Shown in pieces: positions 1 through 54,690 of a stretch of DNA of 64,000 nt. The position numbers and the translations under genes were made by a program. The notes below the pieces were generated by a model. That model did no database searches. It worked only from the letters and a program-made list of their open reading frames with translations, and had not been told where the DNA came from. Location of the stretch: assembly GCF_003991155.1 (NCBI RefSeq), contig NZ_CP031293.1, one strand, 5' to 3'. Source of the DNA: Escherichia coli (lineage in GTDB: Bacteria > Pseudomonadota > Gammaproteobacteria > Enterobacterales > Enterobacteriaceae). Within the stretch, counting starts at the first letter, position 1, and the number at the start of each line of letters is the position of its first letter.

Positions 1-720
1 ATGATCGCCAGTGAAATTAAGCAAAAACTGCATGTTGATGTTCAGGTCGGAGGCGCAGAAGCAGAAGCCGCCATTCAAGGGGCCTTGACTACCCCTGGAA
101 CCACACGTCCACTGGCAATTCTGGACTTAGGTGCAGGCTCTACCGATGCCTCCATCATCAATCAGAAAGGGGAAATTGTTGCCACTCACCTTGCGGGTGC
201 GGGCGACATGGTAACGATGATTATCGTTCGTGAGCTGGGCTTAAATGATCGTTATCTGGCAGAAGAAATCAAAAAGTACCCGTTGGCAAAAGTAGAAAGC
301 CTGTTCCACTTACGCCATGAAGATGGCAGCGTTCAGTTCTTCCCTACTCCCCTATCCCCCTATGTATTTGCCCGCGTCTGTGTAGTGAAACCCGACGAAC
401 TGGTGCCTATTCCCGGTGATTTGACGCTGGAAAAAGTACGCGCTGTTCGTCGCAGTGCGAAAGAGCGTGTCTTCGTAACCAATGCCCTGCGCGCGCTACG
501 TCAGGTAAGCCCTGCCGGAAATATTCGCGACATTCCGTTCGTCGTTCTGGTGGGCGGTTCTTCGCTGGATTTCGAAGTACCACAGTTAGTCACCGATGCA
601 TTGGCGCATTATCGACTGGTCGCCGGACGGGGGAATATCCGTGGTAGCGAAGGTCCGCGCAACGCGGTAGCTACTGGGCTACTCATCGCCTGGCACAAGG
701 AGTCGATTCATGGAAAGTAA
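1..720 (+). CDS. pduG: Diol dehydratase reactivase large subunit, C-terminal 239 aa (gene continues upstream of window)
   Basis: ORF runs from window edge; DLGAGSTD actin/Hsp70-like ATPase motif; followed by pduH-J-K order. Confidence 0.6.
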   Translation: MIASEIKQKLHVDVQVGGAEAEAAIQGALTTPGTTRPLAILDLGAGSTDASIINQKGEIVATHLAGAGDMVTMIIVRELGLNDRYLAEEIKKYPLAKVESLFHLRHEDGSVQFFPTPLSPYVFARVCVVKPDELVPIPGDLTLEKVRAVRRSAKERVFVTNALRALRQVSPAGNIRDIPFVVLVGGSSLDFEVPQLVTDALAHYRLVAGRGNIRGSEGPRNAVATGLLIAWHKESIHGK

Positions 721-1060
721 AGAGCGTGCACCAGCCATCGTCGTCATGGAGATCGGTAACTGCATCACTATATGGGATGAGGTGCTTCTTGGCATTGAAG
801 AGGAAGGTATTCCCTTTCGCATTCAACACATTCCGTCAGGTGAAGTTATCGATAGCGCCTGGCTGGCTGCTCGTCAATCTCCCCTGTTGGTTGGCATTGC
901 CTGCGATCAGGAAAAACTGATTGTGCATTACAAAAACTTACCACCATCAGCGCCACTGTTTACGCTGATGTATCAACAAGATAACCATGCCCGGCGCAGC
1001 ATCGGCACTAACGCTGCCCGCCTGGTAAAAGGAATTCCCTTCCGGGAATTCCACTCATAA
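710..1060 (+). CDS. pduH: Diol dehydratase reactivase small subunit
   Basis: 116 aa, start overlaps upstream stop; position between pduG and shell genes. Confidence 0.6.
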
Positions 1061-1079
1061 TCCACAGGAGAAACGCAGT

Positions 1080-1355
1080 ATGAACAACGCACTAGGACTG
1101 GTTGAAACAAAAGGGTTAGTTGGCGCAATTGAAGCTGCAGATGCCATGGTTAAATCCGCCAACGTGCAGCTGGTTGGCTATGAAAAGATTGGTTCGGGTC
1201 TGATTACGGTGATGGTCCGCGGTGATGTTGGTGCAGTAAAGGCCGCCGTGGATGCGGGGAGCGCTGCGGCAAGCGCAGTTGGCGAAGTGAAATCCTGCCA
1301 TGTCATCCCGCGCCCACACAGTGATGTTGAGGCTATTTTACCTAAATCGGCATAA
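1080..1355 (+). CDS. pduJ: BMC-H microcompartment shell protein
   Basis: 91 aa, canonical BMC domain ([25 protein letters not shown]). Confidence 0.8.
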
Positions 1356-1378
1356 CCCCATTTGCTAAGGAGCACAGC

Positions 1379-1801
1379 GTGAAGCAATCACTGGGATTAC
1401 TTGAAGTCAGTGGTCTGGCACTCGCCATCAGTTGCGCAGATGCTATGGCAAAAGCCGCGTCCATCACGCTGGTTGGCCTTGAGAAGACCAATGGCTCAGG
1501 CTGGACGCTCATCAAAATCACCGGTGACGTCGCCTCGGTTAATGCGGCGATCGCGACGGGAGCCAGTTTCGCCGGACAGCGAAATGGCCTCGTCGCACAC
1601 AAAGTGATTGCCCGTCCGGGAGACGGCATTCTGCCCCACACAACTAAAGCATTGACTGTGACGGTTGAAACAAGCGAAACACCAGCAACAACCGTCATCT
1701 CAGAGATTATCAGTTGTAATTTGTGTCTTGACCCGGCATGTCAGCGGCAAAAAGGTGAGCCCCGCTCACTTTGCCTGCACGCCAATAAGCGAGGGGAGTA
1801 A
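1379..1801 (+). CDS. pduK: BMC shell protein with Cys-rich C-terminal extension
   Basis: GTG start after AAGGAG RBS; N-terminal BMC domain; C-terminal CNLCLDPAC motif. Confidence 0.7.
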   Translation: MKQSLGLLEVSGLALAISCADAMAKAASITLVGLEKTNGSGWTLIKITGDVASVNAAIATGASFAGQRNGLVAHKVIARPGDGILPHTTKALTVTVETSETPATTVISEIISCNLCLDPACQRQKGEPRSLCLHANKRGE

Positions 1802-1803
1802 CA

Positions 1804-2436
1804 GTGGATAAACAAACCTTGCAGGAAACAGTGAGCCAGATTCTGGATGAGATGCGCGAGCGCCCTATCCCTCTGGGTGTTTCCAGTCGTCATATTCATC
1901 TTTCAACAGCGGATTATTTGCGTCTTTTTCCTGAACAACCGATTAGCGAGAAAAAGCCGTTAATGCAACCTGGCCAATTCGCTGCTGAACAGGTTGTTAC
2001 GCTGGAGGGACCAAAAGGTAAATTGCACAACGTTCGCTTGTTGGGGCCGCTACGCAATGCAAGCCAGGTGGAAATTTCCCGGACGGACGCCAGAACGTTA
2101 GGGATCACCGCCCCGCTACGCATGTCAGGCGATCTCAGCGGCACTCCAGGGATTCGTTTGGTAAGCCCATTTGCGGAACTGGAGATCACATCTGGCGTCA
2201 TTGTCGCGCAACGGCATATTCATATGTCTCCGCTGGATGCCCTGATTTATGGCGTTACGCATGGCGATAAAGTGGCGGTTGCCATTGAAGGTGATGAGCG
2301 ACGACTGATATTCGAAAACGTCGCTGTTCGCGTCTCTCCGGATATGCGTCTTGAAATGCATATTGATACCGATGAAGCCAACGCCGCAGGGGCTGATAGC
2401 CCTGACGTTTTTGCCACACTGGTGTCAGTGCCATGA
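1804..2436 (+). CDS. pduL: Phosphate propanoyltransferase
   Basis: 210 aa, GTG start; PduL-like sequence and operon position. Confidence 0.7.
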   Translation: MDKQTLQETVSQILDEMRERPIPLGVSSRHIHLSTADYLRLFPEQPISEKKPLMQPGQFAAEQVVTLEGPKGKLHNVRLLGPLRNASQVEISRTDARTLGITAPLRMSGDLSGTPGIRLVSPFAELEITSGVIVAQRHIHMSPLDALIYGVTHGDKVAVAIEGDERRLIFENVAVRVSPDMRLEMHIDTDEANAAGADSPDVFATLVSVP

Positions 2437-2924
2437 ATAACATGCTGATGCAACGTATTGTTGACGAAGTGGTTTTTCGCCTTAAACAACGTGCGGGAAA
2501 AACACTCGTGCTGACTGTTTTTCAACTGCGAGACGCCAGCGTTCAAGAGATAGTTCATCAGTATGCATCATTACAAATCCGATATGTCGATCTGCCGTTG
2601 TTACGACAACTTGCGGAGAACAAAACGTCAGATCGAGCAGCAATTCAGATACACGAAGCGTTAGCCTGGGGATTGCACATTCAATTGTCGTTGCAGCGTC
2701 ATTTCCTGAACGCCATTGAATTGAAGACTCTCGCCCGTCTACCGCTAAGCTGGTGCGACGAGCAAGGGCAACCGATCTACCTTCATCGTGATCGACTTTT
2801 AAGTTATGCCGATATTGCACAGTTAAGCTCGGGAATACTGGTGTTACAGCGAAAATGTTGTGTGACCGCACTGGCTCGTGAAGCGGCAATTACCCGAAAT
2901 ATTCAGTTAATCAGGCAGGAGTAA
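2433..2924 (+). CDS. pduM: Microcompartment structural protein PduM
   Basis: 163 aa, overlapping start; operon position. Confidence 0.6.
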   Translation: MNNMLMQRIVDEVVFRLKQRAGKTLVLTVFQLRDASVQEIVHQYASLQIRYVDLPLLRQLAENKTSDRAAIQIHEALAWGLHIQLSLQRHFLNAIELKTLARLPLSWCDEQGQPIYLHRDRLLSYADIAQLSSGILVLQRKCCVTALAREAAITRNIQLIRQE

Positions 2925-2927
2925 CCT

Positions 2928-3203
2928 ATGCATCTGGCTCGAGTCACTGGCGCGGTAGTATCCACGCAAAAATCACCTTCTCTGATCGGGAAAAAACTGC
3001 TGCTGGTTCGCCGGGTCAGTGCTGACGGCGAACTGCCTCTCACGCCATTAACCGGCGACGAAGTTGCCGTTGATTCCGTCGGCGCAGGCGTTGGTGAGTT
3101 GGTACTCCTCAGCAGTGGTTCCAGCGCCAGACATGTGTTTTCCGGCCCTAACGAGGCCATCGACCTGGCAGTGGTCGGCATTGTCGATACGCTTTCGCGC
3201 TAA
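2928..3203 (+). CDS. pduN: BMC vertex (pentamer) protein, EutN/CcmL family
   Basis: 91 aa, [16 protein letters not shown]-terminus typical of EutN/PduN. Confidence 0.75.
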
Positions 3204-3214
3204 GGAGCTGAAAG

Positions 3215-4222
3215 ATGGCAATTTATACCCGAACAGGTGATTCAGGAAGTACGTCTTTATTTACCGGACAGCGCGTCAGCAAAACTCATCTACGTGTCGA
3301 AACCTATGGCACGCTGGATGAACTGAACGCGACACTCAGTCTGTGTTATTGCGCCACCGCCATCGAAAGCCATCGCATCTTACTGGAAGCCATTCAACAA
3401 CAGATATTTTGGTTTAGCGCCGAACTCGCCAGTGAAAGCGAACAGCCGTCAGCGCAGCAGCGTTACATCGGTACGGAAGAAATTGCCGCGCTGGAAAACG
3501 CGATCGATAGCGCAATGAACGCCGTCCCCCCGGTTCACAGCTTCATTCTGCCTGGTCGATGTGAAGCTGCAAGCCGCATGCATTTCGCCCGCACGGTGGC
3601 TCGACGGGCTGAAAGACGTCTGGTTGAACTGACAACAGAAACCACCGTCCGGAATGTTTTGCTGCACTATATCAACCGACTTTCCGATTGCCTGTATGCC
3701 CTCGCCCGCGTGGAAGACAACGTTGCTCATCAAAACCTGATGATTCAGGAAATCACAAAACGTTATCACGAAGCCAACCACACACCAGCATTGAAGGAAC
3801 GCACAATGCCGCTCACTTTTCAGGATCTTCACCAGCTCATTCGTAGTGCGGCAATGCGCGCAGATGAACTGCATATTCCCGTTGTCATCAGCATTGTTGA
3901 TGCCAACGGAACAGAAAGTGTTACCTGGCGGATGCCTGATGCCCTGTTGGTCAGCAGTGAACTGGCACCGAAAAAAGCCTGGACCGCCGTGGCGATGAAA
4001 ACGGCAACCCACAAACTTGCTGATACCGTGCAACCCGGCGCGCCGCTTTACGGGCTCGAAAGCCATATGCAAGGCAAAGTCGTCACTTTTGGTGGCGGCT
4101 TCCCCCTCTGGCGTGACGGAAAATTGCTTGGCGGGCTTGGCATCAGCGGCGGTAGCGTTGAACAAGACATGGATATTGCCCAAAGCGCAATGGCGGCAAT
4201 TAACGTGGGAGTAAACCAATGA
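3215..4222 (+). CDS. pduO: ATP:cob(I)alamin adenosyltransferase with C-terminal DUF336-like domain
   Basis: 335 aa; PduO-type N-terminal domain (MAIYTRTGDSGSTSL) plus C-terminal domain. Confidence 0.75.
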   Translation: MAIYTRTGDSGSTSLFTGQRVSKTHLRVETYGTLDELNATLSLCYCATAIESHRILLEAIQQQIFWFSAELASESEQPSAQQRYIGTEEIAALENAIDSAMNAVPPVHSFILPGRCEAASRMHFARTVARRAERRLVELTTETTVRNVLLHYINRLSDCLYALARVEDNVAHQNLMIQEITKRYHEANHTPALKERTMPLTFQDLHQLIRSAAMRADELHIPVVISIVDANGTESVTWRMPDALLVSSELAPKKAWTAVAMKTATHKLADTVQPGAPLYGLESHMQGKVVTFGGGFPLWRDGKLLGGLGISGGSVEQDMDIAQSAMAAINVGVNQ

Positions 4223-5604
4223 ATAACTCTGAATTAGAAACACTGATCCGCAATATTCTGCGTGAGCAGCTTGCCCCCGCTACGCAACGAGCGCAAAGAA
4301 ACGCTATTTTCCAGACTGTTGATGAAGCGGTCTGCGCAGCGCACCAGGCCTTTTTACGCTTTCAACAGTGCCCGCTTAAAACCCGTAGCGCCATTATCAG
4401 CGCCATTCGCGAAGAATTAATGCCCCGCCTTACCGAACTGGCAGAAGAAAGCGCCAGTGAAACAGGGATGGGAAATAAAGAGGATAAGTATCTAAAGAAC
4501 AAAGCAGCACTCAATAATACGCCAGGAATTGAAGATTTAACCACCACTGCACTAACCGGTGATGGTGGCATGGTTTTGTTTGAATACTCCCCGTTTGGGG
4601 TTATTGGCTCGGTCACGCCAAGCACCAACCCCACGGAAACCATCATTAACAACAGCATCAGCATGCTGGCAGCAGGTAATAGCGTCTACTTCAGTCCACA
4701 CCCGGGAGCCAAATACGTTTCGTTAAAACTGATTACCACAATCGAAGACATCGCGTTTCGCTGTAGTGGCATTCACAACCTGATCGTTACCGTATCTGAA
4801 CCGACCTTTGCCGCCACCGAACAGATGATGGCGCACCCTAAAATCAGCGTTCTGGCGATTACCGGCGGTCCGGGGATCGTCGCCATGGGAATGAAAAGTG
4901 GCAAGAAAGTGATTGGTGCCGGTGCGGGTAACCCTCCGTGCATCGTCGATGAAACGGCGGATATTGTGAAAGCCGCCGAAGATATCATCAACGGCGCTTC
5001 ATTTGATTACAACCTGCCGTGTATCGCTGAAAAAAGCCTGATTGTCGTGGCATCAGTGGCAGAGTATTTAATTCAGCAGATGCAAAGTTTTGGCGCGCTT
5101 CTTCTTAACTATGAGCAAACGGAGAAATTGCGTGCAATTTGCCTGCCAGACGGTAGCGCCAACAAAAAACTGGTTGGGAAAAGCCCATCAGCCTTGCTGG
5201 AAGCGGCAGGCCTCCCTTTGCCCGCAAAAGCGCCGCGCCTACTGATTGCTGTTGTCGACGCCAATGATAGTTGGGTTACTTGTGAACAACTGATGCCAAT
5301 GCTGCCCATTGTGAAGGTCAACGATTTTGATAGCGCTCTCGCCCTGGCGTTGAAAGTGGAAGACGGCTTGCACCACACGGCAATTATGCACTCGCAGAAC
5401 GTCTCACGGCTCAACCTTGCCGCGCGCGTTATGCAAACCTCAATCTTTGTCAAAAACGGCCCCTCTTGGGCGGGTATTGGCGTCGGCGGCGAAGGCTTTA
5501 CGACCTTTACTATTGCAACACCGACCGGAGAAGGGACAACGTCAGCACGGACTTTTGCCCGCTCACGACGCTGTGTGTTAACCAGCGGCTTTTCAATTCG
5601 CTAG
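4219..5604 (+). CDS. pduP: CoA-acylating propionaldehyde dehydrogenase
   Basis: 461 aa aldehyde dehydrogenase family; operon position. Confidence 0.8.
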   Translation: MNNSELETLIRNILREQLAPATQRAQRNAIFQTVDEAVCAAHQAFLRFQQCPLKTRSAIISAIREELMPRLTELAEESASETGMGNKEDKYLKNKAALNNTPGIEDLTTTALTGDGGMVLFEYSPFGVIGSVTPSTNPTETIINNSISMLAAGNSVYFSPHPGAKYVSLKLITTIEDIAFRCSGIHNLIVTVSEPTFAATEQMMAHPKISVLAITGGPGIVAMGMKSGKKVIGAGAGNPPCIVDETADIVKAAEDIINGASFDYNLPCIAEKSLIVVASVAEYLIQQMQSFGALLLNYEQTEKLRAICLPDGSANKKLVGKSPSALLEAAGLPLPAKAPRLLIAVVDANDSWVTCEQLMPMLPIVKVNDFDSALALALKVEDGLHHTAIMHSQNVSRLNLAARVMQTSIFVKNGPSWAGIGVGGEGFTTFTIATPTGEGTTSARTFARSRRCVLTSGFSIR

Positions 5605-5614
5605 AGAAACGGAA

Positions 5615-6727
5615 ATGAATACTTTTTCACTGCAGACGCGTTTATACAGCGGACCAGGAAGTCTCAAGGTACTTAGCCGTTTCTCTCATAGACACATCTG
5701 GATTATTTGCGATGCCTTTCTGGCACACTCACCACTCATTGACACGTTGCATCAGGCGCTGCCAGACAGTAATCGTCTCAGTATTTTTAGCGAAATAACG
5801 CCCGACCCAACTATCCAGACCGTGGTGAAAGGCATTGCGCAAATGCAGACTTTACGCCCGGATGTGGTTATCGGTTTTGGCGGCGGTTCTGCCCTGGACG
5901 CCGCAAAAGCGATTGTCTGGTTTGGTCGCCAGTGTGGCATTGAAATTGAAACCTGCGTAGCCATTCCTACCACCAGCGGTACCGGTTCCGAAGTGACCAG
6001 TGCTTGTGTCATCAGCGATCCTGAGAAAGGGATTAAATATCCCCTTTTCGATAATGCACTTTATCCGGATATCGCGATCCTTGATCCATCTCTGGTCGTC
6101 AGCGTGCCACCGGCGATAACGGCCAATACCGGGATGGATGTTTTAACCCATGCGCTTGAAGCTTATGTTTCTCCTCGCGCCAGCGACTTCACGGATGCAC
6201 TGGTCGAAAAAGCCGTGCAAATTGTTTTTCAATACCTGCCCACTGCAGTGAAGAAAGGCGATTGTCTCGCCACCCGTGGCAAAATGCATAATGCATCGAC
6301 ACTTGCAGGAATGGCCTTTAGCCAGGCTGGACTGGGATTAAACCATGCAATTGCTCATCAACTCGGCGGACAGTTTCATCTGCCACACGGCCTGGCGAAT
6401 GCGCTCCTGCTCACGGCGGTTATCCGCTTTAATGCTGGCGATCCGCGCGCTGCCAAACGCTACGCCCGGCTGGCGAAAACGTGCCATTTATGCCCGGACA
6501 ACGCCAATGACACCGCCAGCCTGAATGCACTTATTCAACATATTGAACAGCTTAAAACAACCTGTACGCTGCCGACTCTTACCAATGCGCTGAAAGAAAA
6601 AAAAGCAGAATGGTCAATACGCATACCAGATATGGTTCAGGCGGCACTGGCGGATGCAACGTTGCGTACCAACCCGCGTGCGGCTGATGCCTCCGCGATT
6701 GCAGAACTGCTCGAGGAGTTGTTATGA
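5615..6727 (+). CDS. pduQ: Propanol dehydrogenase (iron-containing alcohol dehydrogenase)
   Basis: 370 aa, Fe-ADH motifs (GGGSALDAAK). Confidence 0.8.
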   Translation: MNTFSLQTRLYSGPGSLKVLSRFSHRHIWIICDAFLAHSPLIDTLHQALPDSNRLSIFSEITPDPTIQTVVKGIAQMQTLRPDVVIGFGGGSALDAAKAIVWFGRQCGIEIETCVAIPTTSGTGSEVTSACVISDPEKGIKYPLFDNALYPDIAILDPSLVVSVPPAITANTGMDVLTHALEAYVSPRASDFTDALVEKAVQIVFQYLPTAVKKGDCLATRGKMHNASTLAGMAFSQAGLGLNHAIAHQLGGQFHLPHGLANALLLTAVIRFNAGDPRAAKRYARLAKTCHLCPDNANDTASLNALIQHIEQLKTTCTLPTLTNALKEKKAEWSIRIPDMVQAALADATLRTNPRAADASAIAELLEELL

Positions 6728-8067
6728 ACGTCGAGTTAACCTCCTGCGACGACCAGACCATCCGCGAGCGAGTACAGGCAGCAGGTGTCGTGGGTGCTGG
6801 CGGGGCAGGTTTTCCAACCCATATTAAGCTACAAGCGCGTGTTGACACGTTCCTGGTGAATGCGGCGGAATGCGAACCCATGTTGAAAGTGGATCAACAG
6901 TTAATGGTGCAGCAAGCCAGCCGCCTGCTTCGCGGTGTTCACTATGCGATGAAAGCCACCGGGGCCAGTAGCGGAATCATCGCGCTGAAAGAGAAATATC
7001 AACGGGCAATAAACGCACTCACACCACTGTTACCACCGGATATCCGCCTGCATATTTTGCCCGATGTTTACCCCGCAGGAGACGAAGTGCTGACCATCTG
7101 GATGGCAACTGGTCGCCGCGTTCCACCCGCTGCATTACCCGTTAGCGTCGGTGTGGTGGTCAATAATGTTCAAACCGTACTTAATATTGCCAGAGCCGTC
7201 GAGCAACAGTATCCAGTGACGCGCCGCACACTCACTATTAATGGTGCAGTGGCGAAACCAATAACGGTAACCGTCCCCATCGGCATGTCTTTCCGTGAAG
7301 TCCTGGCGCTGGCGGGCGGCGCAACAGTAGATGCTCCTGGTTTTATCAATGGCGGGCCGATGATGGGAAGTTTGATCACATCGCTCGACACACCCGTCAG
7401 CAAAACCACTGGCGGCTTGCTGGTTTTACCCAACTCTCATTCACTGATCCAACGTCGAATGCAGAATGACCGCAGCGTACTTACCGTCGCGAAAACTGTT
7501 TGTGAGCAATGCCGCTTGTGTACCGATCTCTGCCCACGTCATTTAGTCGGTCACGAACTGGCCCCCCATTTATTAGTACGTGCGGTTAACTACCAACAGC
7601 TCGCTACGCCACAACTGTTACTGACGGCGCTCACCTGTTCGGAGTGCAACGTCTGCGCCAGCGTCGCCTGTCCGGTAGGAATTTTACCAATGCGCATAAA
7701 CCGCCTGCTTAAGCAGGAATTACGCGCACAAAATCTCCGCTACGAAGGTGCCTTAAATCCTGCAGATCCCTTGGCAAATTATCGACTGGTTCCCGTAAAA
7801 CGGCTGGTAACCAGACTGGGCTTAACCCCGTGGTATCAGGATGCGCCATTGTCTGAACAGGTGCCTCAGCCCGAAAAAGTGACGTTATTGTTACGCCAGC
7901 ACATCGGTGCCAGCGCAATTGCGTGTGTACAAAAAGGCGATCGCGTCGTTCATGGGCAATGTGTAGGTCAAATTCCACACGGCACATTAGGTGCCCCCAT
8001 TCATGCCAGTATTGATGGCATGGTCAGCGATGTGACAGAAAACGCGATTACGCTTGTGAGAGGTTAA
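6724..8067 (+). CDS. pduS: Cobalamin reductase, RnfC-like Fe-S flavoprotein
   Basis: 447 aa with two Cys clusters ([25 protein letters not shown]). Confidence 0.75.
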
Positions 8068-8069
8068 CG

Positions 8070-8624
8070 ATGTCGAAAGCGGTAGGTATTTTAGAACTTA
8101 GCAGTATCGCGAAAGGGATGGAAACCGGCGACGCCATGCTGAAAAGCGCCAACGTTGAGTTACTGGTCAGCAAAACGCTATGCCCCGGAAAATTTCTGCT
8201 GATGCTCGGTGGCGATGTGGGCGCGGTGCAACAGGCCATCAACAGCGGTGCTTCCCTTGCTGGTGAAATGCTGGTCGACAGTCTTGTCCTGCCGAATATT
8301 CATCCCAGTCTCCTTTCTGCAATCAGCGGACTGAACCAAGTTGAACAGCACCGGGCTGTCGGCGTAGTCGAAACCTGGAGTGTCGCCGCCTGCATTGACG
8401 CTGCCGATTGTGCTGTCAAAGCTGCGAATGTCATTCTTGTTCGCGTGCATATGGCTTTTGGCATTGGCGGTAAATGCTACATGGTGGTTGCTGGCGATAT
8501 TTCAGATGTTAATAACGCGGTCTCTGTCGCCAGCGAGCGTGCGGGAGAAAAAGGTTTGTTGGTCTATCGGTCGGTGATTGCCCGTCCACATGAAGCCATG
8601 TGGCGTCAGATGGTGGAGGGATAA
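8070..8624 (+). CDS. pduT: Tandem BMC-domain shell protein
   Basis: 184 aa, two BMC domains; stop overlaps pduU start. Confidence 0.75.
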
Positions 8625-8974
8625 TGACAACTCAGCACACAACTGAACGGATGATTCAGGAATATGTCCCTGGTAAGCAGGTCACGCTGGCACATGTCAT
8701 CGCCAATCCAGGGAAGGATCTGTTTAAGAAATTGGGTTTACCAGACACCGTTTCTGCTATTGGCATTCTGACGATTACCCCCAGCGAAGCATCTATCATC
8801 GCATGCGATATCGCCACAAAATCAGGCGCTGTAGAGATCGGTTTTCTTGATCGTTTTACCGGTGCCGTAGTGCTGACTGGTGATGTTTCTGCCATTGAAT
8901 ATGCACTTAGCCAGGTTACCCGTACGCTGGGTGAAATGATGCGCTTTACCACCTGCCCCATTACGCGGACCTGA
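8624..8974 (+). CDS. pduU: Permuted BMC shell protein
   Basis: 116 aa from ATG at 8624 (TAATG overlap with pduT). Confidence 0.7.
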
Positions 8975-8978
8975 CGTT

Positions 8979-9422
8979 ATGCAACGTATGATGCTTATCG
9001 GCCCCAGCCAGTGCGGAAAAACGTCACTCACGCAATGTCTGCGTGGCGAAAATATCCATTATCAGAAAACGCAGGCAATCGTCTGGTCCCCGACCACCAT
9101 TGATACACCAGGCGAATACCTCGAAAACCGCAGCCTCTACAGTGCATTGTTGGTCAGTGCCTGCGAAGCAGACATTATCGCGCTGGTACTTAATGCGGAC
9201 GCACCGTGGTCACCTTTTTCGCCAGGCTTTACCTCGTCAATGAATCGCCCGGTCATTGGAGTAGTAACCAAAGCAGATTTAGCCAGTATGGAACAAATAT
9301 CTTTGGTGAAATGTTGGTTACGGGAAGCTGGAGCGCACAACGTGTTAGTAACCAGTGCGGTTAATAACAATGGAGTTACAGAAGTTTTTGCCTTGCTGCA
9401 TACAGAAGAAGGCTGTCGCTAA
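8979..9422 (+). CDS. pduV: EutP/PduV-family GTPase
   Basis: 147 aa, P-loop GPSQCGKTS. Confidence 0.75.
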
Positions 9423-9481
9423 TTTCGATAGGTTCTCAGATGAGAATGATGACGGTGATACACAGATAAGAATCAATGAGC

Positions 9482-9508
9482 AATGAGGGTTGCCGGGCAA
9501 CCCTCATT
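9482..9508. terminator. Perfect 12-bp-stem palindrome between convergent pduV and yeeX
   Basis: AATGAGGGTTGCCGGGCAACCCTCATT; no strong T-run on either side. Confidence 0.45.
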
Positions 9509-9522
9509 GAATAAAACAGGAA

Positions 9523-9852
9523 TTACTTCGCTTCGCCGTTTTTCATTTCGCCCATAGCTTTCAGCTTTTTGGAGATATCGCGGCGTTCTTTGGAGAGCTC
9601 GGCATTTTTGATGATGTAATCGTCAACGCGATCTTCATAGTCACCTTTCATGCTGGCGATGATGCCCTGGATTGCTTCAACGCTCATCCCTGGCTTGATG
9701 TAATCGCTCAGGTTGTCCAGCAACAGGACGCGCTTCTGGTTGTCACGGATCTTTTTCTCAACGTCCTGAATTTCACGTTGCAGTTTGTTCTTACGACGGA
9801 ACAGACGAACAAATTCCAGTACGTCCTGGAATGAAGGCTTGGTAGTTTCCAT
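9523..9852 (-). CDS. yeeX: DUF496 family protein YeeX
   Basis: 109 aa from [11 protein letters not shown]; ORF track extension upstream judged non-coding. Confidence 0.85.
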
Positions 9853-10023
9853 TTTTATACCCCTGATAATGTGAGAGTCGGATTCGTTTAAGCAACCGCT
9901 ATTCGTTAGGGCCAACATTACTCATAGCTGCCGCAGATGACAATGCTTTTATCCCTTTTCACTATCATACCCTTTATCCTTGCTGAATCGAAGCAGCAGC
10001 AAGATGATTCTGAAGTTCAGGAA

Positions 10024-11082
10024 TTATTTGCGCAAGGCCCGGCAAATCAGATTCGATAGCAACTCAAGCTGATGTGCCGTTTCCATGTTCAGCCACACAT
10101 AACCATAGATTGGTGTTTCTACGACTTTCAGGTCATGGTGGTTATCGAGCAACTGACGCAACTCTTCCACAGCATCGTTCAATTTTTCCGTATTGGCAAA
10201 AACCGGCTGCGGATTACCTTCGTACAGCGCATGAACAAGGCTCAGCAGTATTTGCTGCATCATGTGCTGGGTATCACGAAGTTTTTGCGCGTTCAATAAC
10301 ACGAAATGGCTGGGGCGCGTGGCCCAGTATGCATTGATTTGCAACTCCAGCATACAAACCAGATTGCGATTAATGGTCTGGATACCTTCATATATCGATT
10401 TGGGAATACGGGTTTCTTTGCTGGCGGGCGCAATCAGCCCACGCATTTTCACGGCATCGGTCAGCAGTTTTTGTAGATGGCTTTCCAGACGTGGGCGTTC
10501 GAGTAAGTTCGGTGAGAATGCAGATTGATAGACCCGATTATACTCGGTCAGACTTTTCGCCAGTTGAATGCGCCAGTGGATGAACGCCCGTTGTGGCCAG
10601 ATACCGGTAAACAACATTGCCAGTAAAGAGCCGAGGATCACATCGCCGCTTCGCCACAACGCCGTATCAATTTCACCTGTCGGGGAACCCACAACAATTG
10701 CCAGCGTCACCCCAATCAATAATCCTTGATACGGTTTCTTGCCCAGCGCCAGCCAACCGCAAAGAAACATCGCCGCCGCGCACCAGACTAACATCAGCGG
10801 TAACGAAATTAACTCCAGTTGCAGAGCGATAAGACCTAAAATCGAACCCAACACCGTACCGCCAATACGTTCGAAGGCACGAGGGACAACGTTACCCCAG
10901 AACGAGATTGGCCCCATAATCACCACCATGGTGACCAGCGGCCAGGTACTTTCCGGGATAGTAAACAGGCGGATAATGAGAAAAGTGAGCAGGAATGCCA
11001 GCGCGACCCGAGTACCATGCACAATGCGGTAATGGCGGTATACCCGGATTTCAAACGGGCTTAATGACTTATCGGCACGCAC
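10024..11082 (-). CDS. yeeA: Inner membrane protein YeeA (FUSC-like)
   Basis: 352 aa polytopic membrane protein matching YeeA. Confidence 0.85.
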   Translation of the reverse strand: MRADKSLSPFEIRVYRHYRIVHGTRVALAFLLTFLIIRLFTIPESTWPLVTMVVIMGPISFWGNVVPRAFERIGGTVLGSILGLIALQLELISLPLMLVWCAAAMFLCGWLALGKKPYQGLLIGVTLAIVVGSPTGEIDTALWRSGDVILGSLLAMLFTGIWPQRAFIHWRIQLAKSLTEYNRVYQSAFSPNLLERPRLESHLQKLLTDAVKMRGLIAPASKETRIPKSIYEGIQTINRNLVCMLELQINAYWATRPSHFVLLNAQKLRDTQHMMQQILLSLVHALYEGNPQPVFANTEKLNDAVEELRQLLDNHHDLKVVETPIYGYVWLNMETAHQLELLSNLICRALRK

Positions 11083-11279
11083 GCAGAAACTCCGTAATGA
11101 AGATTAAAAGCGCTCATAACTCATCTGTCGGCCAGAAGGCGCGCCTCTGAATTATCCGACGGACATACCGGGAACAGTGTAATTTCCCGGCAGGAGCGAA
11201 AAAATTGAAAGGCGCATCTTACTCTTTTCGCTTTCAAAAAAAGAGTGGTCATCGCGTTAACACACCGCCCTGAGATGAA

Positions 11280-11753
11280 TTAGTGATGTTTTGGCTGCAC
11301 CGCAACATACATTTCGATATCCCAGTACCCATCTTCCGCGCCATTGTTCAAGTAAACCTCGAAGCAGGGCTTTGGTAACATTTCATAGGCACTGTCCTGC
11401 AAGAGGCTATTAAAGAACTGATACCAGGGTTTAGCAAAATCATCACCGACTACACGAGCCACCGCCACCGCATACTGACCACCTGAAATTTCTGTCAGAA
11501 TGACGCCCTCACTGTTTTCGGGGAGCGTAAAGTTATTCGGTACCGTCACGACGGTGTCGCAGCGTAATTTTTCGGCGGGTGTTTCATCTGGATTGTCGTA
11601 ATAGACAGCAACCCACTCCTTCGGCACAATATTTTTGCTATCTATCCACATCATCAACTGCTCAAAACCTTTCTTTACCGTCTGCTCCCACGGGCCAACA
11701 AGATGGAAACCTGCAACGGTACGTTTATCTTCCTGCTTAATCTCGTAGTTCAT
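11280..11753 (-). CDS. sbmC: DNA gyrase inhibitor SbmC (GyrI)
   Basis: 157 aa, [23 protein letters not shown]. Confidence 0.9.
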
Positions 11754-11769
11754 GACGCCTCCATTAACA

Positions 11770-11785
11770 CTGTTTTTATATACAG
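11770..11785. promoter_or_regulatory. LexA (SOS) box upstream of sbmC
   Basis: CTGTTTTTATATACAG fits CTGT-N8-ACAG immediately upstream of sbmC start. Confidence 0.6.
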
Positions 11786-11871
11786 TATAGTTGCAATATT
11801 AAAACCACAAGGAATGAGTGTTGATTATGCGAGCAGACTCGCACTCCTGCCAGTCTGCTGCAAAAGAAAGG

Positions 11872-13044
11872 TCAGGCCTTATGGTGGAAATAATCACTCA
11901 GCCGGGAAAACATGCTGCCTTCCCCGACAGATTCCAGGGTAACCAGCGGCCAGTGCGCCACCTGTTTATCACGGTCGTAAAGTTCAATTTCCCCTACCCG
12001 CTGATGGGCGCTAATTGGCGCGGTGAGTTCTTTACCATCAAGGGTATATTTGGCTTTGATATGTGGAATTTCGGCTTTCGGTAGCACCATCCAGAACTCT
12101 TGTTCCGTTCCCAGGGCGATATTTTCTTTATCGCCATACCAGATGCGTTCCGTACCAACCTTTTTCCCACGGTGCAAAATTTGCACCGTAGTAAAGTTTT
12201 GTTGCCCCCAACGCAGTAATTTTCTTGCCTCTTCCTCACGACCTTTTGCGCTGTCAGCCCCCATTACCACTGCAATGAGACGACGCTGCCCATCTACAGC
12301 CGAAGCAATGAGATTAAACCCGGCACCAGAAGTATGACCCGTTTTCAGGCCGTCAACATTCATGGTTTTATCCCACAATAACCCGTTACGGTTTTGCTGG
12401 GTGATACCGTTCCAGGTGAGGCTTTTCTCACTGTACATATGATAAAACTCGGGCTCGCCGTGGATGATAGCGCGAGAAAGCACAGCTAAATCATAAGCCG
12501 AGCTATGCTGGCCAGGTGCATCCAGACCATGCACTGTTTCAAAATGCGTATCCTTGAGATGCAGCTTCTCGGCATAGTTGTTCATCATTTCAACAAACTG
12601 CCGTTGCCCACCGGCAATATAGTCAGCCAGAGCAACACAAGCGTCATTTCCGGAATCCACAATTAAACCACGGCTTAAATCACGTACCGATACGCGATCG
12701 CCCTCTTTCAGAAACATCAGTGAAGAACCGACAAACACCGGATTATCTTTCGCCCACGCATCGCGCCCCACGGTGACAATATCGTCTGGCGTAATGCGAT
12801 GACTATCGATAGCACGATCCACGACATAGCCCGTCATCAGCTTTGTCAGGCTGGCGGGATTGCGCTGTTGATGCTCATTACCCGCGGTGAGAATCTGACC
12901 GGTGGTGTAATCCATCAATACCCAGGACCCGGCATGAATCTCTGGAGGCTGAGGTGAAAAAGGAATGTTTTCCGCCGCAAAACCAGACGATAAATTAAAA
13001 ACGAACAAAGAAGCAGCAATAATAAGACGGCGTTTCAACAGCAA
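11872..13044 (-). CDS. dacD: D-alanyl-D-alanine carboxypeptidase DacD (PBP6b)
   Basis: 390 aa with signal peptide and SLTK/SGN motifs. Confidence 0.9.
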   Translation of the reverse strand: MLLKRRLIIAASLFVFNLSSGFAAENIPFSPQPPEIHAGSWVLMDYTTGQILTAGNEHQQRNPASLTKLMTGYVVDRAIDSHRITPDDIVTVGRDAWAKDNPVFVGSSLMFLKEGDRVSVRDLSRGLIVDSGNDACVALADYIAGGQRQFVEMMNNYAEKLHLKDTHFETVHGLDAPGQHSSAYDLAVLSRAIIHGEPEFYHMYSEKSLTWNGITQQNRNGLLWDKTMNVDGLKTGHTSGAGFNLIASAVDGQRRLIAVVMGADSAKGREEEARKLLRWGQQNFTTVQILHRGKKVGTERIWYGDKENIALGTEQEFWMVLPKAEIPHIKAKYTLDGKELTAPISAHQRVGEIELYDRDKQVAHWPLVTLESVGEGSMFSRLSDYFHHKA

Positions 13045-13238
13045 ACCCTCAGGTGTTTCAAATAGCTGTTCTTTTTACGGAAATACTTATGAACTGGCTG
13101 GAATAAAGTGCAAGAAAATGTGACTACTATCTCATTTTTATCTGACATGATCTGTTGCCACTCGCTGCCAAATTGTCGCGCTAAAGCTGATTAGCACGGT
13201 GATATTTGATACTCTGGCAGACAGCAGAAACAACGGAT

Positions 13239-13306
13239 TTAACCTAATGATGAATGACGGTAAGCAACAATCTACCTTTTTGTTTCACGATTACGCGCAA
13301 CACCCC
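13239..13306 (+). pseudogene. sbcB: Displaced native 5' end of sbcB (first ~16 codons) left at prophage left junction
   Basis: ATGATGAATGACGGTAAGCAACAATCTACCTTTTTGTTTCACGATTACG encodes MMNDGKQQSTFLFHDY, then diverges into phage DNA and stops. Confidence 0.6.
13275..13287. repeat. attL core (13-bp identity with attR)
   Basis: TTTCACGATTACG identical to 53257-53269; flanks are imperfectly similar. Confidence 0.6.
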
Positions 13307-13348
13307 TGAGAACCGCCATAAACAAGGGTTTCATGATTTGTGATTTTA

Positions 13349-13375
13349 GTTTGGTACGCAATTTGGTACACAACA
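13349..13375. promoter_or_regulatory. Candidate integrase arm-type binding sites (left arm)
   Basis: Tandem TTTGGTACGC / TTTGGTACAC motifs, same motif repeated near the right junction. Confidence 0.4.
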
Positions 13376-13814
13376 CAATTTTCACTTCAGCGGGTAGTCA
13401 TCAAACTCACCATAACGCACTTCGTTGATGATGTACGTGATCACCAAAAATATCGCATCCGGACTAGTTCCATCTTCATGCGCAGGCATATGTTCATGCC
13501 TACCTGTCTGCAAACCAGTAATAAGCCATTACAGGGTGATAGTGATGCATCAACTACGTTAAGCGCAGAGAAATGATGCAGTGGTGGGCGGATTGGCTTG
13601 ATGAAAAGGTGGAGTGATCCACCTTAACCACTATCGAAGAGCACAAAGCCTTGCAATCCAGTGCAAAGCTTTGTGTGTCTCAGTTTTGTTTCATAGGTAA
13701 TCATGCGTTCACTACGATGCAAGAATCCATACCAAATTTTATTTAAAACTCACAAATACACTAGATAAAAACAATCCCGCAGTTTTCATGCGGGATATAC
13801 TGCATTTATTGCAA

Positions 13815-16292
13815 CTACATTGCCATTAATATAAACATAGCCAATTCGTCATAACGAATTCCGTAGCGTCCACCTGCTTTTTTTACAAGAATCATATTTC
13901 CTGTTTTATATTGAGAATAAATTTTCTCACCTGTATCAGGATCTGTGCTCTCTTCAGTTATCACCTCTTCATCCCATACGTCTGGCCATTCATCGTAACA
14001 CCAAAAAGCATATTGCTCAGGATTTAAACCATGCTTTCTAAGAATATCTCCTACGGTTTGAGCGCCAACTCCAAAATGATACCTTGATAACTCCAATCCT
14101 TTAAAATTAATCGACTCATTAAACCTGAACTTGCATATAATTCCCTTTATTTCCAGCGCAGCATCACGCTCTGCCTGAGTAATGTCATATATTGTTTTAA
14201 GTGTTTCATCTGATGTGCTTATAGTCCCGGATGCAGAATAAATCTGAGCCCATCTAAATGATGGTGCACCAAGAGATTTGCTGTTATCAATAATTGGTGA
14301 AAAATTACCTTTAATGGCAATATTTCCAGAGTCGCCGAATATATTAATAACTGTAGAGTCATCACCATGGTTTTTTACGCTTAAGTTTCTTGATAAAATA
14401 TTTATATCTTTGTTATACCCACTAACATTAATCCATCTTTTACCATCAATGTGATACCCGTAAATATTTCCGTTTGATTGTTCGTCAGGTGACTCTCTAA
14501 GAACAATAGCATCTACTCCAGACGACCATTGTATTTTTGTATCTGTAGGCCTCCAGTTCTTTATAATGAACGAACCATCAGTAAACTCCGTTTTTATTTG
14601 TCTATTGTCTACAAATGCGTCTCTTGGTTTAAACTCACTTGTGTTAACGCTGCTCTGAAGATCAGAAGCAAAAAATCTAAGATTTCCTGTATAACCCTGA
14701 GTCTCGGTCAGGTTATACGCAATCATAATTCCATTTTCAAACTCAGATGATGTTATTTTAACATCACGGCAATCACCAAAAATGCAATTTCCTTTATCAA
14801 ATGTTGTTTGAGCTTTGAATTTATCAAACCTTAAATTACGAACAGGGAAACCATCAACCTCTAATGCAAAGGATGCATGAAGGCCAAAGTATTCTGATGG
14901 CTTACCTGATGTATGATCAAGAGTAGTGGCTACTGTATTCTCAAAAACAGTCCCGCTAAAATTATTACCAATTGACGGAAACCTGATTACACTTATTGTA
15001 CCTTGTATTTCAGGAGAAATACCAGATAGTGTGATGTTAGTTCCATCAAATGATGCATCTGAATACGTATATACTGATTCACTGCCAGCAATTTTAAACT
15101 GTTTAACTGAAGTTATTCTCATCGACTTTTTATGTTTAAATGTCACTGAGCTTTCAGTATTACTTACAAGATCAATCTGAGGGCTATTCCTTATCGCGAT
15201 TCCTGACTGGACATAAACGTTATTAAAGTGCGTTTTTTCAGGATTTCCCTTCATTGAAAGGCTCCCGTCATTTTCTGTCAGTAGTAGTCCTTTTACCCTC
15301 CAATAGCCGACAATCTGTACGTTATCAATAACTGAATCACAGCTATCGTATACATGCAACCCTATATCCCAGTTATCACCCAATGAATAAGAATCAGGGT
15401 TATTGTATCCTTCAATACCATTTTTACTTACCATTATTCTCAGATTGCGTAACTGTGATGCCCTGTTGATACTAACAGCTACGCTCATGGCTTTTGGTGT
15501 AGCAGGAGTAACACCTACAGAATCTTCATTCGTAAACTCAGTGAACTTACAAGATATCCCTTCAACAATTTTAACCGGTCTTTCATTAGAGATGTTAAAA
15601 AAATATTTGTTTTTTTCTCCATCACCAGTAAATACAAGATGGGTTCCTTTACTCCAACTTTTTAATAATCTTTCAGGCGCTGGTCTATATGTATCCCAAT
15701 AATCAATGCCAGATCCAACCAGTGAACACCCCTCAGGAATGTTAATATTCTTCTTGATGATGCATATTCCTTCCGGAATTGTTATAACCGACCTTCCAGA
15801 GTTTAAAGCTTTAATAAAAGCATCTGAATCATCTGTTTCCCCATCTATTTTTGCTCCCCACCCTCTAACATCTCCACAATCTCTCCATCGTGCCATCTGC
15901 AACTCAGGATATTTTTTAGCGCCATCTGGATCTTCTAATTGCTGCCGTAGCTGATCGGGGTCATACTTCAGCACATTAGGAAAATAGAACTGCTGCGCAC
16001 CATATGCATCATAAACAGCCATAGAATGGCCTTGCACAGTTACAAACTTGGCTATTTGCCCGTTATATACCGGGTAACCAGCAGCGTTAATGATGATTGG
16101 TTGCGAAACAGGAACGTGAGAGCCATCTTCGTTCTCCACATAAACCTGAATCTGGTTTTCAGGATTTACAGGGTCAGTGTCAATTTTACCGATATAAATT
16201 TTGCCATTGGCAACCGCTTTAAAAGAACGTGCCATAGTGAAGAGTTGAGAAGGCATACTCACTACAACATTGGCATTTATCGAATCTGTCAT
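13815..16292 (-). CDS. Tailspike: P22 gp9-like head-binding N-domain, divergent receptor-binding domain, C-terminal intramolecular-chaperone-like domain
   Basis: 825 aa; N-terminus resembles P22 tailspike; SDETLK motif about 150 aa from C-terminus. Confidence 0.85.
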
Positions 16293-18234: not shown

Positions 18235-18720
18235 ATGAAAAAATCACTATTAATTATCCCGCTTCTGCTGGCTGGATGCGCAAAAGTAAGTGACTACCAA
18301 GCAAGTTGCGAACAACGCTATCCAAAGCTTAGTGATATGGCTAATTGCCTTGATGCCAGCGTGAAGAACGACTCACGCATGGCATCAGCACCAACACCTA
18401 AGCTGTATGTCCTTGCTGCGAAGATGCTCGGGCAAGGTGTCGATGAAGGCAAGATAAGTGACGCACAGGCAAGACTTGAGCTTCAGAATCTTTATGTTCA
18501 ATTACAAAGCCAAGAACAAGCCCAACAAATAGCGCAAAGCCAAGCATTCCAGCAGGCTTTATTGAATTATCAGGCTGTAAACACAATGCAAGCGATCGAG
18601 CAAAAAGCGCGCCAGCCTGTTATAACTCAACCTTACCCAACACGCGTTGACACATATACAAACTGCAATTCAGGATTTGGAAACACCGTCACATGCAACA
18701 GTAGCAGCAACATTAGATAA
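18235..18720 (+). CDS. Lipoprotein of unknown function (lipobox LLAGC), Gln-rich C-terminal half
   Basis: 161 aa; MKKSLLIIPLLLAGC signal and lipobox; downstream of mnt in same orientation. Confidence 0.5.
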   Translation: MKKSLLIIPLLLAGCAKVSDYQASCEQRYPKLSDMANCLDASVKNDSRMASAPTPKLYVLAAKMLGQGVDEGKISDAQARLELQNLYVQLQSQEQAQQIAQSQAFQQALLNYQAVNTMQAIEQKARQPVITQPYPTRVDTYTNCNSGFGNTVTCNSSSNIR

Positions 18721-43538: not shown

Positions 43539-44189
43539 ATGAAAACTCAATTGATGGGAGAGCGCATTCGCGCTCGGAGAAAAGAACTCAAGATCAGGCA
43601 GGCCGCACTTGGAAAGATGGTCGGCGTGTCTAATGTTGCCATATCTCAGTGGGAACGCTCTGAGACAGAGCCAAATGGAGAGAATCTTCTCGCCCTGGCT
43701 AATGCGTTGAAGTGTTCCCCTGACTATCTGATGAAAGGAGAGGAAAGTCTTTCAAACATTGCCTATCACAGTAGGCATGATCCAAGAGGGTCATACCCTC
43801 TGATTAGCTGGGTGAGCGCAGGATGCTGGATGGAAGCTGTAGAACCATATCATAAGCGTGCAATAGATAACTGGTACGATACAACCGTAGACTGTTCAGA
43901 AGATTCGTTTTGGTTGGATGTGAAGGGAGACTCAATGACGGCTCCGGCCGGTCTCAGTATCCCTGAAGGAATGATAATACTCGTCGATCCTGAAGTAGAG
44001 CCGCGTAACGGGAAACTGGTAGTTGCAAAGCTCGAAGGAGAAAACGAGGCAACTTTCAAGAAGTTAGTTATTGATGCAGGCAGGAAGTTTCTAAAACCAC
44101 TTAACCCACAATATCCGATGATCGAGATCAACGGAAACTGCAAAATCATCGGCGTAGTTGTCGATGCAAAACTAGCAAACCTTCCATAA
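43539..44189 (+). CDS. c2: C2 repressor (P22-type, LexA-like autocleaving)
   Basis: 216 aa, HTH N-domain and S24 peptidase C-domain. Confidence 0.95.
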   Translation: MKTQLMGERIRARRKELKIRQAALGKMVGVSNVAISQWERSETEPNGENLLALANALKCSPDYLMKGEESLSNIAYHSRHDPRGSYPLISWVSAGCWMEAVEPYHKRAIDNWYDTTVDCSEDSFWLDVKGDSMTAPAGLSIPEGMIILVDPEVEPRNGKLVVAKLEGENEATFKKLVIDAGRKFLKPLNPQYPMIEINGNCKIIGVVVDAKLANLP

Positions 44190-47418: not shown

Positions 47419-48126
47419 ATGGATTTGAACAAATTCGATGAACCATTCAGCCCTGAAGATATCGAATGGCGAATACAGCAAAGCGGTAAAACACGCGATG
47501 GCAAGGTGTGGGCTATGGTGCTGGCTTATGTCACGAACCGGGCAATCATGAAACGCCTGGACGATGTTTGCGGCAAAGCAGGATGGCGCAATGAATACCG
47601 CGATATTCCCAACAACGGCGGAGTTGAATGCGGCATATCAATCAAGATTGATTCCGAATGGGTAACCAAATGGGATGCTGCTGAAAACACGCAGGTAGAA
47701 GCCGTCAAAGGTGGTCGTTCCGGTGCAATGAAGCGTGCTGCCGTTCAATGGGGAATCGGTCGGTATCTGTATAACCTTGAGGAAGGTTTCGCACAAACAT
47801 CTCTCGATAAAAAGCAGGGATGGCACAGGGCAAAACTGAAGGATGGAACAGGATTTTACTGGCTCCCTCCATCGCTGCCGGGATGGGCAATCCCAGCATC
47901 AGATAACAAACCATCACCAGAAAATACCAACCAGAAATCTCCATCGGTTGACTGCGAACAAATCCTGAAAGACTTCAGCGATTATGCATCAACAGAAACT
48001 GACAAGAAAAAACTCATCGAGCGTTATCAGCGTGACTGGCAATTAATGGCTGGCAACGAGGAGGCGCAGGCTAAATGCGTTCAGGTAATGAACATCAGAG
48101 TTAACGAACTAAAACAGGCGGCATAA
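47419..48126 (+). CDS. Rad52-family single-strand annealing protein
   Basis: 235 aa; AAVQWGIGRYLY motif. Confidence 0.65.
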   Translation: MDLNKFDEPFSPEDIEWRIQQSGKTRDGKVWAMVLAYVTNRAIMKRLDDVCGKAGWRNEYRDIPNNGGVECGISIKIDSEWVTKWDAAENTQVEAVKGGRSGAMKRAAVQWGIGRYLYNLEEGFAQTSLDKKQGWHRAKLKDGTGFYWLPPSLPGWAIPASDNKPSPENTNQKSPSVDCEQILKDFSDYASTETDKKKLIERYQRDWQLMAGNEEAQAKCVQVMNIRVNELKQAA

Positions 48127-51691: not shown

Positions 51692-51883
51692 ATGACCGAT
51701 ACCAGCCTGATTCCTGAGAAAGAAGTGATGAACAAGCTCGGTGTTTCATCACGTCAGACAATCTGGAACTATACCAAACGGCACGGATTTCCGAAGCCAG
51801 TCAGAACCCACCCCAAATCATACCTTCGTGAAGCTGTTGAAGGGTGGATTCTTAACGGTGGCGTTAATCAGAAATGCTCCTGA
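51692..51883 (+). CDS. xis: AlpA-family excisionase / DNA-binding regulator
   Basis: 63 aa with HTH (LGVSSRQTIWNYTKRHGFPKP); adjacent to integrase. Confidence 0.7.
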   Translation: MTDTSLIPEKEVMNKLGVSSRQTIWNYTKRHGFPKPVRTHPKSYLREAVEGWILNGGVNQKCS

Positions 51884-53042: not shown

Positions 53043-53050
53043 AAATAATA

Positions 53051-53097
53051 TTTGGTACGCTCAGAAATAATGGTTTGGTACACATCTGGTACACAAT
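53051..53097. promoter_or_regulatory. Candidate integrase arm-type binding sites (right arm)
   Basis: Repeated TTTGGTACGC / TTTGGTACAC / TGGTACACAA motifs between int and core. Confidence 0.4.
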
Positions 53098-53223
53098 ATC
53101 ACATGGACAACAGCGCACAGTAAACAACTATATTTGACGTTCGTAGACATACTCAGGTGAAAAAATGGTTGTTTTTCGAGTTATAACAGACAGTTAATTA
53201 ACTACAGTGGACAATGCTAGACA

Positions 53224-54648: not shown

Positions 54649-54655
54649 TGTGAAG

Positions 54656-54681
54656 CCTCCGCCGCTGGTACGGCGGAGGAC
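54656..54681. terminator. Bidirectional hairpin between convergent sbcB and yeeD
   Basis: CCTCCGCCGCTGGTACGGCGGAGG. Confidence 0.5.
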
Positions 54682-54690
54682 AATTTTGAG

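Follow-up and report, generated by a model that had tools for sequence, protein, structure and literature searches.

What a temperate phage does to a host gene when it integrates within the coding sequence is the question raised by a 64-kb stretch of Escherichia coli DNA, analysed here as a whole and referred to as the window. A start of sbcB, the gene for exonuclease I (ExoI), is present at one place, whereas a full-length sbcB with another start is found about 40 kb further on. The explanation preferred here, at a probability of roughly 85%, is that a P22-like phage with an attachment module of the phage 2851 type has inserted in sbcB and that a phage-borne start restores a full-length ExoI gene. 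The features needed for the argument are the following.

11872-13044, minus strand: dacD, the chromosomal gene left of the attachment site (open reading frame; annotated dacD in matching genomes)
13045-13246, plus strand: native dacD-sbcB intergenic region, collinear with K-12 up to the core
13247-13309, plus strand: stranded native sbcB 5' end followed by phage P' DNA, a 20-codon stub reading frame, MMNDGKQQSTFLFHDYAQHP and a stop codon
13283-13295, plus strand: attL copy of the 13-bp core TTTCACGATTACG, encoding F-H-D-Y and the first base of E within the Exo I active-site motif
13296-53256, no strand: P22-like prophage body (39,974 bp for the insert with one core copy)
13351-13371, plus strand: P' arm with two direct TTGGTACRC repeats (copies at 13351 and 13363), putative arm-type integrase (Int)-binding sites
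13815-16292, minus strand: tailspike, the first phage gene at the left end (phrog_1171, E = 2e-203; annotated as phage tailspike in strain DP051)
43539-44189, plus strand: CI/C2-type prophage repressor (phrog_4, E = 3e-64)
47419-48126, plus strand: Erf
51692-51883, plus strand: AlpA-family excisionase (Xis) or regulator (phrog_66), convergent with int, with a 20-bp overlap of the 3' ends (51864-51883)
51864-53042, minus strand: tyrosine integrase of the phage 2851 type, 392 aa (phrog_1), abutting attR
53043-53223, plus strand: phage-derived P arm, the whole new sbcB upstream region, from the left edge of which int starts divergently
53052, 53075 and 53086, plus strand: three arm-type repeats of the P arm
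53224-53256, plus strand: phage-borne mimic of the sbcB 5' end, ATG and 10 codons (MTDTDKQPTFL)
53224-54648, plus strand: chimeric full-length sbcB, exodeoxyribonuclease I, 474 aa, starting MTDTDKQPTFLFHDYETFG
53257-53269, plus strand: attR copy of the core, an exact match

Junctions and body of the prophage

At the left junction, the native sbcB start (ATGATGAATGACGG..., ATGATGAATGACGGTAAGCAACAATCTACC...) is indeed stranded as proposed in the preliminary description, except that it begins at 13247, eight bases later than the 13239 given there. The stub reads MMNDGKQQSTFLFHDY before running into phage DNA (AQHP), up to a stop codon at 13307-13309. The core TTTCACGATTACG is found in exactly two exact copies in the 64-kb window; when one mismatch is allowed, three matches are obtained versus 0.07 expected, a number reached in none of 100 shuffles. 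The same description placed these two copies at both junctions together with imperfect flanking homology, and this is what is found. In megablast comparisons with empty-site E. coli genomes, homology ends exactly at 13295 on the left; on the right, owing to imperfect homology in the flanks, it restarts at 53240.

A three-way alignment of both junctions with the uninterrupted K-12 locus, the check that had been suggested, gives K-12 sequence through the last core base on the left and K-12 sequence from the core on to the right. In-silico deletion of 13296-53269 (39,974 bp) regenerates the K-12 dacD-sbcB locus without gaps, 12700-13295 joined to 53270-54700 forming a single ungapped alignment of 2027 bp with 43 mismatches, in agreement with the claim that the prophage lies within the sbcB coding sequence. 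The preliminary description had itself raised the reverse reading, in which the native start would be that at 53224 and the sequence at 13247 an unrelated duplication. This is refuted, as homology breaks exactly at the core and as the 13247-type start is contiguous with the sbcB body in about 4800 prophage-free genomes. The native sbcB promoter and ribosome-binding site (RBS) presumably lie within 13045-13246 and are now split from the gene body.

The insert is a complete P22-like prophage with the usual mosaic structure, and its GC content is 47.3% versus 51.2% for the flanks. PHROG matches include a P22-type tailspike, Ant, portal, large terminase, C2/CI-type repressor, DnaB-like helicase, Erf, AlpA-family excisionase and tyrosine integrase. 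The virion module, the tailspike with its conserved head-binding N-terminus, Ant, the C2-type repressor and Erf are those of a temperate podophage of the Lederbergvirus type. The late region shares 93.8-96.9% DNA identity over 45-66% with APC_JM3.2, IME10 and other E. coli P22-like phages, and the early region 94.2-97.8% over 40-55% with CUS-3, HK544 and relatives. Taken by halves, identity is about 96% in the late one (APC_JM3.2 and IME10) and about 97% in the early one (CUS-3, HK544 and relatives). The int and xis genes and both core copies are intact in the window, which includes no tRNA gene.

Between attL and the tailspike stop codon, the approximately 520 bp of 13296-13814 hold no open reading frame longer than 78 codons; HK544 has a hypothetical reading frame in the matching stretch. 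A minus-strand terminator hairpin stands at 13774-13796, just downstream of the tailspike gene. A 161-aa reading frame at 18235-18720 (plus strand) is carried on the strand opposite to the surrounding late genes and matches PHROG 6067, of unknown function, over its full length (E = 2.6e-110); it may be a moron or a cargo gene of the lysogenic-conversion type.

On the chromosomal side, the left flank (1-10000) includes the propanediol-utilisation (pdu) cluster with pduO, pduP, pduQ and others, and 1-12700 is covered to at least 80% in 636 of 5426 complete E. coli genomes. An IS621 insertion interrupts the left flank in two of the five best-matching genomes and is absent from this window. The right flank carries the enterobacterial small RNA STnc240 (RF02074, 57674-57748, minus strand, 69.3 bits) and the histidine operon leader (RF00514, 60046-60169, plus strand, 132.9 bits), both expected for the sbcB-his region.

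The chimeric gene and its phage-borne start

The intact sbcB at 53224 starts with MTDTDKQPT and not with MMNDGKQQST, whereas the K-12 protein used for comparison has 475 aa and starts MMNDGKQQSTFLFHDYETFG. An in-frame ATG opens a 474-aa reading frame through the core, so that the different N-terminus and the conserved exonuclease I frame are both as first described. The exchange of the first 11 or so residues needs a more precise wording: 11 phage codons do precede the core, but the residues that change are only the first nine native ones, now eight (MMNDGKQQS to MTDTDKQP). Over the 33 nucleotides ahead of the core, the phage sequence aligns without gaps with native sbcB from its second ATG and is identical at 21 positions, and the F and L codons beside the catalytic motif differ only synonymously (TTT/TTC and TTG/CTC).

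The product scores 814.9 bits against NCBIfam NF008746 (cutoff 260), the ExoI equivalog. Its residues 1-474 align end to end with crystallised E. coli ExoI (PDB chains), and the FHDYETFG motif with the catalytic D and E is intact. The predicted tryptic peptide from the chimeric start is QPTFLFHDYETFGTHPALDR. A short-query protein search, which gave mainly gene fragments, served to catalogue N-termini. Among SbcB orthologues, the leader preceding FLFHDYETFG is hypervariable, both in length (4-15 residues) and in sequence; the N-terminal substitution is therefore likely neutral for catalysis.

Leaders of this kind exist as native ones. Indeed, the native SbcB of another enterobacterium, encoded next to dacD, has the leader MTDSAAQPT, and the mimic corresponds in length and pattern to such MTDSAAQPT-type leaders of other enterobacteria. 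The search for a donor species returned none: among about 100,000 species genomes, the codons TTCCTCTTTCACGATTACGAAAC are matched in only two, those of Pantoea stewartii and Tenebrionibacter. The former carries an Int remnant and is therefore itself phage-derived. In Tenebrionibacter intestinalis (locus L009, 8700-8940), sbcB contains the phage-type codons TTCCTCTTTCACGATTACG, preceded upstream by several repeats of the TGTAC type that resemble the arm sites of Salmonella phage SEN34; no integrase match is found on the 13.9-kb contig.

The attP site was rebuilt by joining 52700-53269 to 13296-13900. The reconstructed sequence is contiguous in the free phages Sf101, E212, EC.P3, mEp234, HK140, HK544 and APC_JM3.2, and in HK544, read directly, the attP region consists of ATGACAGACACAGATAAACAACCTACCTTCCTCTTTCACGATTACG followed by phage sequence, giving a 19-codon reading frame, MTDTDKQPTFLFHDYAKHP and a stop codon. 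The location of attP inside a phage-borne mimic of the sbcB 5' end, which had been proposed from the window, is thus borne out in free phages. A target-gene-restoring attP is one with a diverged copy of a gene end that restores the frame of the target, and this prophage carries such a copy.

The following course of events would account for these observations. A complete P22-like temperate phage would integrate by tyrosine-integrase site-specific recombination at TTTCACGATTACG, which covers sbcB codons 13-17, its own attP being placed in a short diverged sbcB 5' copy with an ATG and 10 codons ahead of the core. Integration would leave the native promoter, RBS and first 16 codons at attL as the 20-codon stub, whereas at attR the phage-borne start would be fused in frame to the remainder of sbcB. 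The lysogen would keep a full-length exonuclease I, with transcription and translation signals supplied by the phage P arm.

A phage 2851-type attachment module

The integrase, the core at both junctions and in attP, and the insertion in the sbcB 5' end between dacD and the sbcB body are those of the phage 2851-type module, and the system is, judged by its sequence, a member of that published int/attP family. Over all 392 aa (tblastn), the integrase shares 99.5% identity with that of the Stx2c phage Stx2_EH1904 and 98.5% with the phage 1717 enzyme. At the DNA level, the match to the int region of phage 2851 is 98.9%, and the int-side half of the reconstructed attP is 98.8-99.5% identical to phage 2851, phage 1717 and many Stx-converting phages. 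In HK544 and mEp234, the 13 bp are annotated as "attP; prophage attachment site (type 2851)".

The Stx2c phages 2851 and 1717, the Stx2a_WGPS phages and HK544, mEp234, HK140, Sf101 and APC_JM3.2 share with this prophage the sbcB target, the core, the P arm and the 5' mimic. The remaining genome of the 2851-module phages is a different mosaic, whereas here the module belongs to a P22-like podophage devoid of stx and oacB. The attP region of Sf101, a serotype-converting phage of Shigella flexneri, matches 82% of the reconstructed attP at 94.7% identity, but Sf101 has the O-acetyltransferase gene oacB, which is absent from the window. The primary report on phage 2851 is reportedly that of Strauch et al. 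in 2008.

Some phages are known to keep their target gene intact through gene-end copies borne on attP, as do e14 and phage 21 in icd and many phages in the 3' ends of tRNA genes. As in the present case, attB lies within the gene, a diverged copy of the gene end is carried on a phage arm and a full-length gene is regenerated. In these classic cases, it is the 3' end that is exchanged and the native promoter stays in place, whereas here the 5' end is replaced, so that the promoter, RBS and start codon are phage-derived. The finding is already known in kind and correct in detail, as the site, the core and the attP-borne gene restoration are all established.

An sbcB attachment site with the same 13-bp core, printed as CGTAATCGTGAAA, the reverse complement of TTTCACGATTACG, has been published for phage 2851, Stx2c phages and Sf101, a correspondence that the preliminary description did not recognise, and the relevant passages of the Sf101 paper cite phage 2851 as the primary source (PMC4159516). 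Those passages make no mention of the replacement N-terminus (PMC4159516). A full-text literature search, the coverage of which does not extend to the original phage 2851 report, found no discussion of this replacement or of 5'-end replacement in general.

The xis and int genes converge with overlapping 3' ends, a layout of AlpA-type xis and int also found in HK544 and SEN34. Consequently, int must be transcribed from within the P arm of attP and toward the phage interior. In lambda and P22, int is read from the early-left operon, whereas here the convergence with xis precludes this. The motif TGGTACRC has seven matches in the window, of which five stand beside the two junctions, all on the plus strand; these five copies are read as putative arm-type Int-binding sites. 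Neither an IHF consensus nor core-type inverted repeats were found around attP.

Of 5426 complete E. coli genomes, 580, or about one in ten, carry the 227-bp P arm together with the core, at an identity of at least 97.8% in all but one, the exception being at 90.7%. Among the matches listed, it overlaps an annotated sbcB in all 40, and in the four loci inspected the sbcB coding sequence has 474 aa from the ATG equivalent to that at 53224. The chimeric protein is already a routine RefSeq annotation: that of strain 2013C-4991 is WP_040090339.1, and the exact protein of the window is found on 125 contigs in a large protein collection. The P22-like left junction is present in 308 genomes versus 580 for the right end, and genomes with the P arm but without this left junction carry other mosaics, including Stx phages.

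Possible expression of the restored gene, and its relatives beside decayed phages

The exchange of the whole sbcB upstream region, put forward in the preliminary description, is evident at attR, where the P arm (53043-53223) replaces 13045-13246; the promoter and RBS must therefore be phage-derived. A promoter scan of 52950-53350 returned no sigma-70 consensus promoter, the best candidate of a relaxed scan being TGGACA-19-TATATT at 53104-53134, with an over-long spacer. The Shine-Dalgarno complementarity at the chimeric start is weak (-3.0 kcal/mol). The same scans of the native sbcB upstream region gave no convincing sigma-70 promoter or Shine-Dalgarno sequence either and, since the native region is equally featureless, these absences argue little either way.

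An alternative explanation is that integration silences or strongly lowers sbcB and leaves lysogens deficient in ExoI. In O157, sbcB counts among the four standard insertion sites of Stx prophages and was occupied in 26.9% of 346 strains, and the literature speaks of its "disruption" or "occupancy" (PMC8309913). This wording favours silencing, as does the lack of a consensus promoter or a strong Shine-Dalgarno sequence in 53043-53223, but the native upstream region scores no better. Moreover, a silenced gene would be expected to decay, whereas sbcB is intact and annotated behind the P arm in all the matches listed and all the inspected loci of the 580 E. coli genomes. It is likewise intact in Salmonella enterica and S. 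bongori, in which only a fossil P arm is left, and the position of the start codon is conserved in diverged P arms. Silencing is accordingly judged improbable compared with a restored, full-length gene.

Wherever the P arm has diverged, the mimic retains its start codon and frame. In FDAARGOS_1277 the mimic reads ATG GCA ... CTA, that is, a T2A change and a synonymous L change, and in phage 1717 only a K codon differs, synonymously. Strain Z1323, in which int is truncated next to IS100, has a 1-bp deletion in the non-coding part of the P arm and encodes the same chimeric protein as strain 2013C-4991. A metagenomic relative with an Int 86.7% identical has MADTDKQPS and two further synonymous changes. 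In this relative (L012), sbcB is split into two gene calls, which could be due to a sequencing error or reflect a pseudogene. In P. stewartii, TTG stands at the position of the ATG, and a 33-aa Int remnant accompanies an intact sbcB.

A more distant system is that of Salmonella phage SEN34, whose Int is 60.5% identical and whose AlpA/int layout is the same convergent one. The SEN34 attP contains TTCCTCTTTCACGATTACGAAA with an in-frame GTG start. Its mimic MTVKNNSVQNT differs from the present one and is two codons longer, and its arm-type repeats are of the TGTAC type, unlike the TGGTACRC found here. In S. diarizonae, a SEN34-type module lies upstream of sbcB, and gene callers take the GTG as the sbcB start. 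In S. enterica, only a 37-41-aa N-terminal remnant of a SEN34-type Int is left between sopA and an intact sbcB, and S. bongori shows the same fossil arm with an intact sbcB. Beside dacD, S. enterica has neither a native sbcB stub nor a core, which leaves the gene with the phage-type start alone. The conservation of start and frame in diverged P arms, together with an intact sbcB behind a decayed phage, argues that the replacement start is functional. On these comparisons, the chimeric gene would be expressed and active, and the mimic would be maintained so that lysogeny spares host ExoI.

The Salmonella loci compared come from public assemblies and are L014 (2243-2560), L018 (1-11431) and L020 (3316-3570). 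The gene order in S. enterica is yeeA-sbmC-dacD-phsCBA-sopA-int remnant-sbcB, the Int remnant and a fossil P arm standing directly upstream of sbcB, and its sbcB has a phage-type leader, MTVKNDSIQST, with a GTG start. In S. bongori, IS fragments and an OspG-kinase-like gene lie upstream of the fossil arm. An arrival of the phs operon in Salmonella with an sbcB-integrated element was considered and is not supported, as S. enterica has no stub or core next to dacD. Salmonella sbcB appears to depend for good on a 5' end of phage origin, with the effector gene sopA abutting an old attR.

The sbcB-like sequence in attP could also be a by-product of the homology required for Int crossover, or else be left over from an imprecise excision in the past. 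Identity peaks beside the core and falls off further upstream, and no IHF consensus or core-type inverted repeats were found that would delimit what Int needs. As for maintenance of the mimic, conservation of the P arm within E. coli is too high for selection on it to be shown specifically. Yet recombination needs just the core and its immediate flanks, whereas an in-frame start is placed 33 nucleotides upstream. Furthermore, at least four diverged lineages retain a start codon (ATG, TTG or GTG) and are free of stop codons, and the codons closest to the catalytic motif vary only synonymously (F, TTT/TTC; L, TTG/CTC/CTA/CTT). A by-product origin is unlikely on this evidence, although a little less so than silencing.

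The preliminary description suggested that ExoI expression may come under phage-derived control, which is possible. A further possibility is that the promoter swap is adaptive and couples ExoI to the prophage state, via Int/Xis occupancy of the P arm or early-left read-through upon induction, in aid of phage recombination or replication. The upstream region is entirely phage-derived, the arm-type sites are located no more than about 170 bp ahead of the new start, and the repressor, Erf and Xis are encoded on the plus strand and point toward sbcB, the repressor orientation placing early-left transcription on that strand and in that direction. This reading is purely inferential, however. Three plus-strand terminator-like hairpins (51146, 51651 and 52185) intervene between the early genes and sbcB, int is read oppositely across the interval, and phage-free fossil P arms accompany an intact sbcB, so that no phage factor is required. 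Adaptive coupling appears about as improbable as silencing.

The simple restoration of a full-length gene by a phage-borne start remains the preferred explanation. A broader proposal is that the P arm changes the amount or timing of ExoI in about 10% of E. coli, in a way tied to the prophage state, and that a relative of the same module has permanently replaced the promoter and 5' end of Salmonella sbcB. This is tentative and on balance doubtful, although less so than the alternatives discussed above; if true, lasting promoter turnover in a DNA-repair gene would originate from phage attachment sites. The practical consequence would be modest unless ExoI expression differs. At an occupied site, sbcB is not destroyed, and lysogens carry a full-length ExoI gene whose start and upstream region come from the phage, which bears on the recombination and repair phenotypes of lysogens and on the status of sbcB as a marker in O157 typing.
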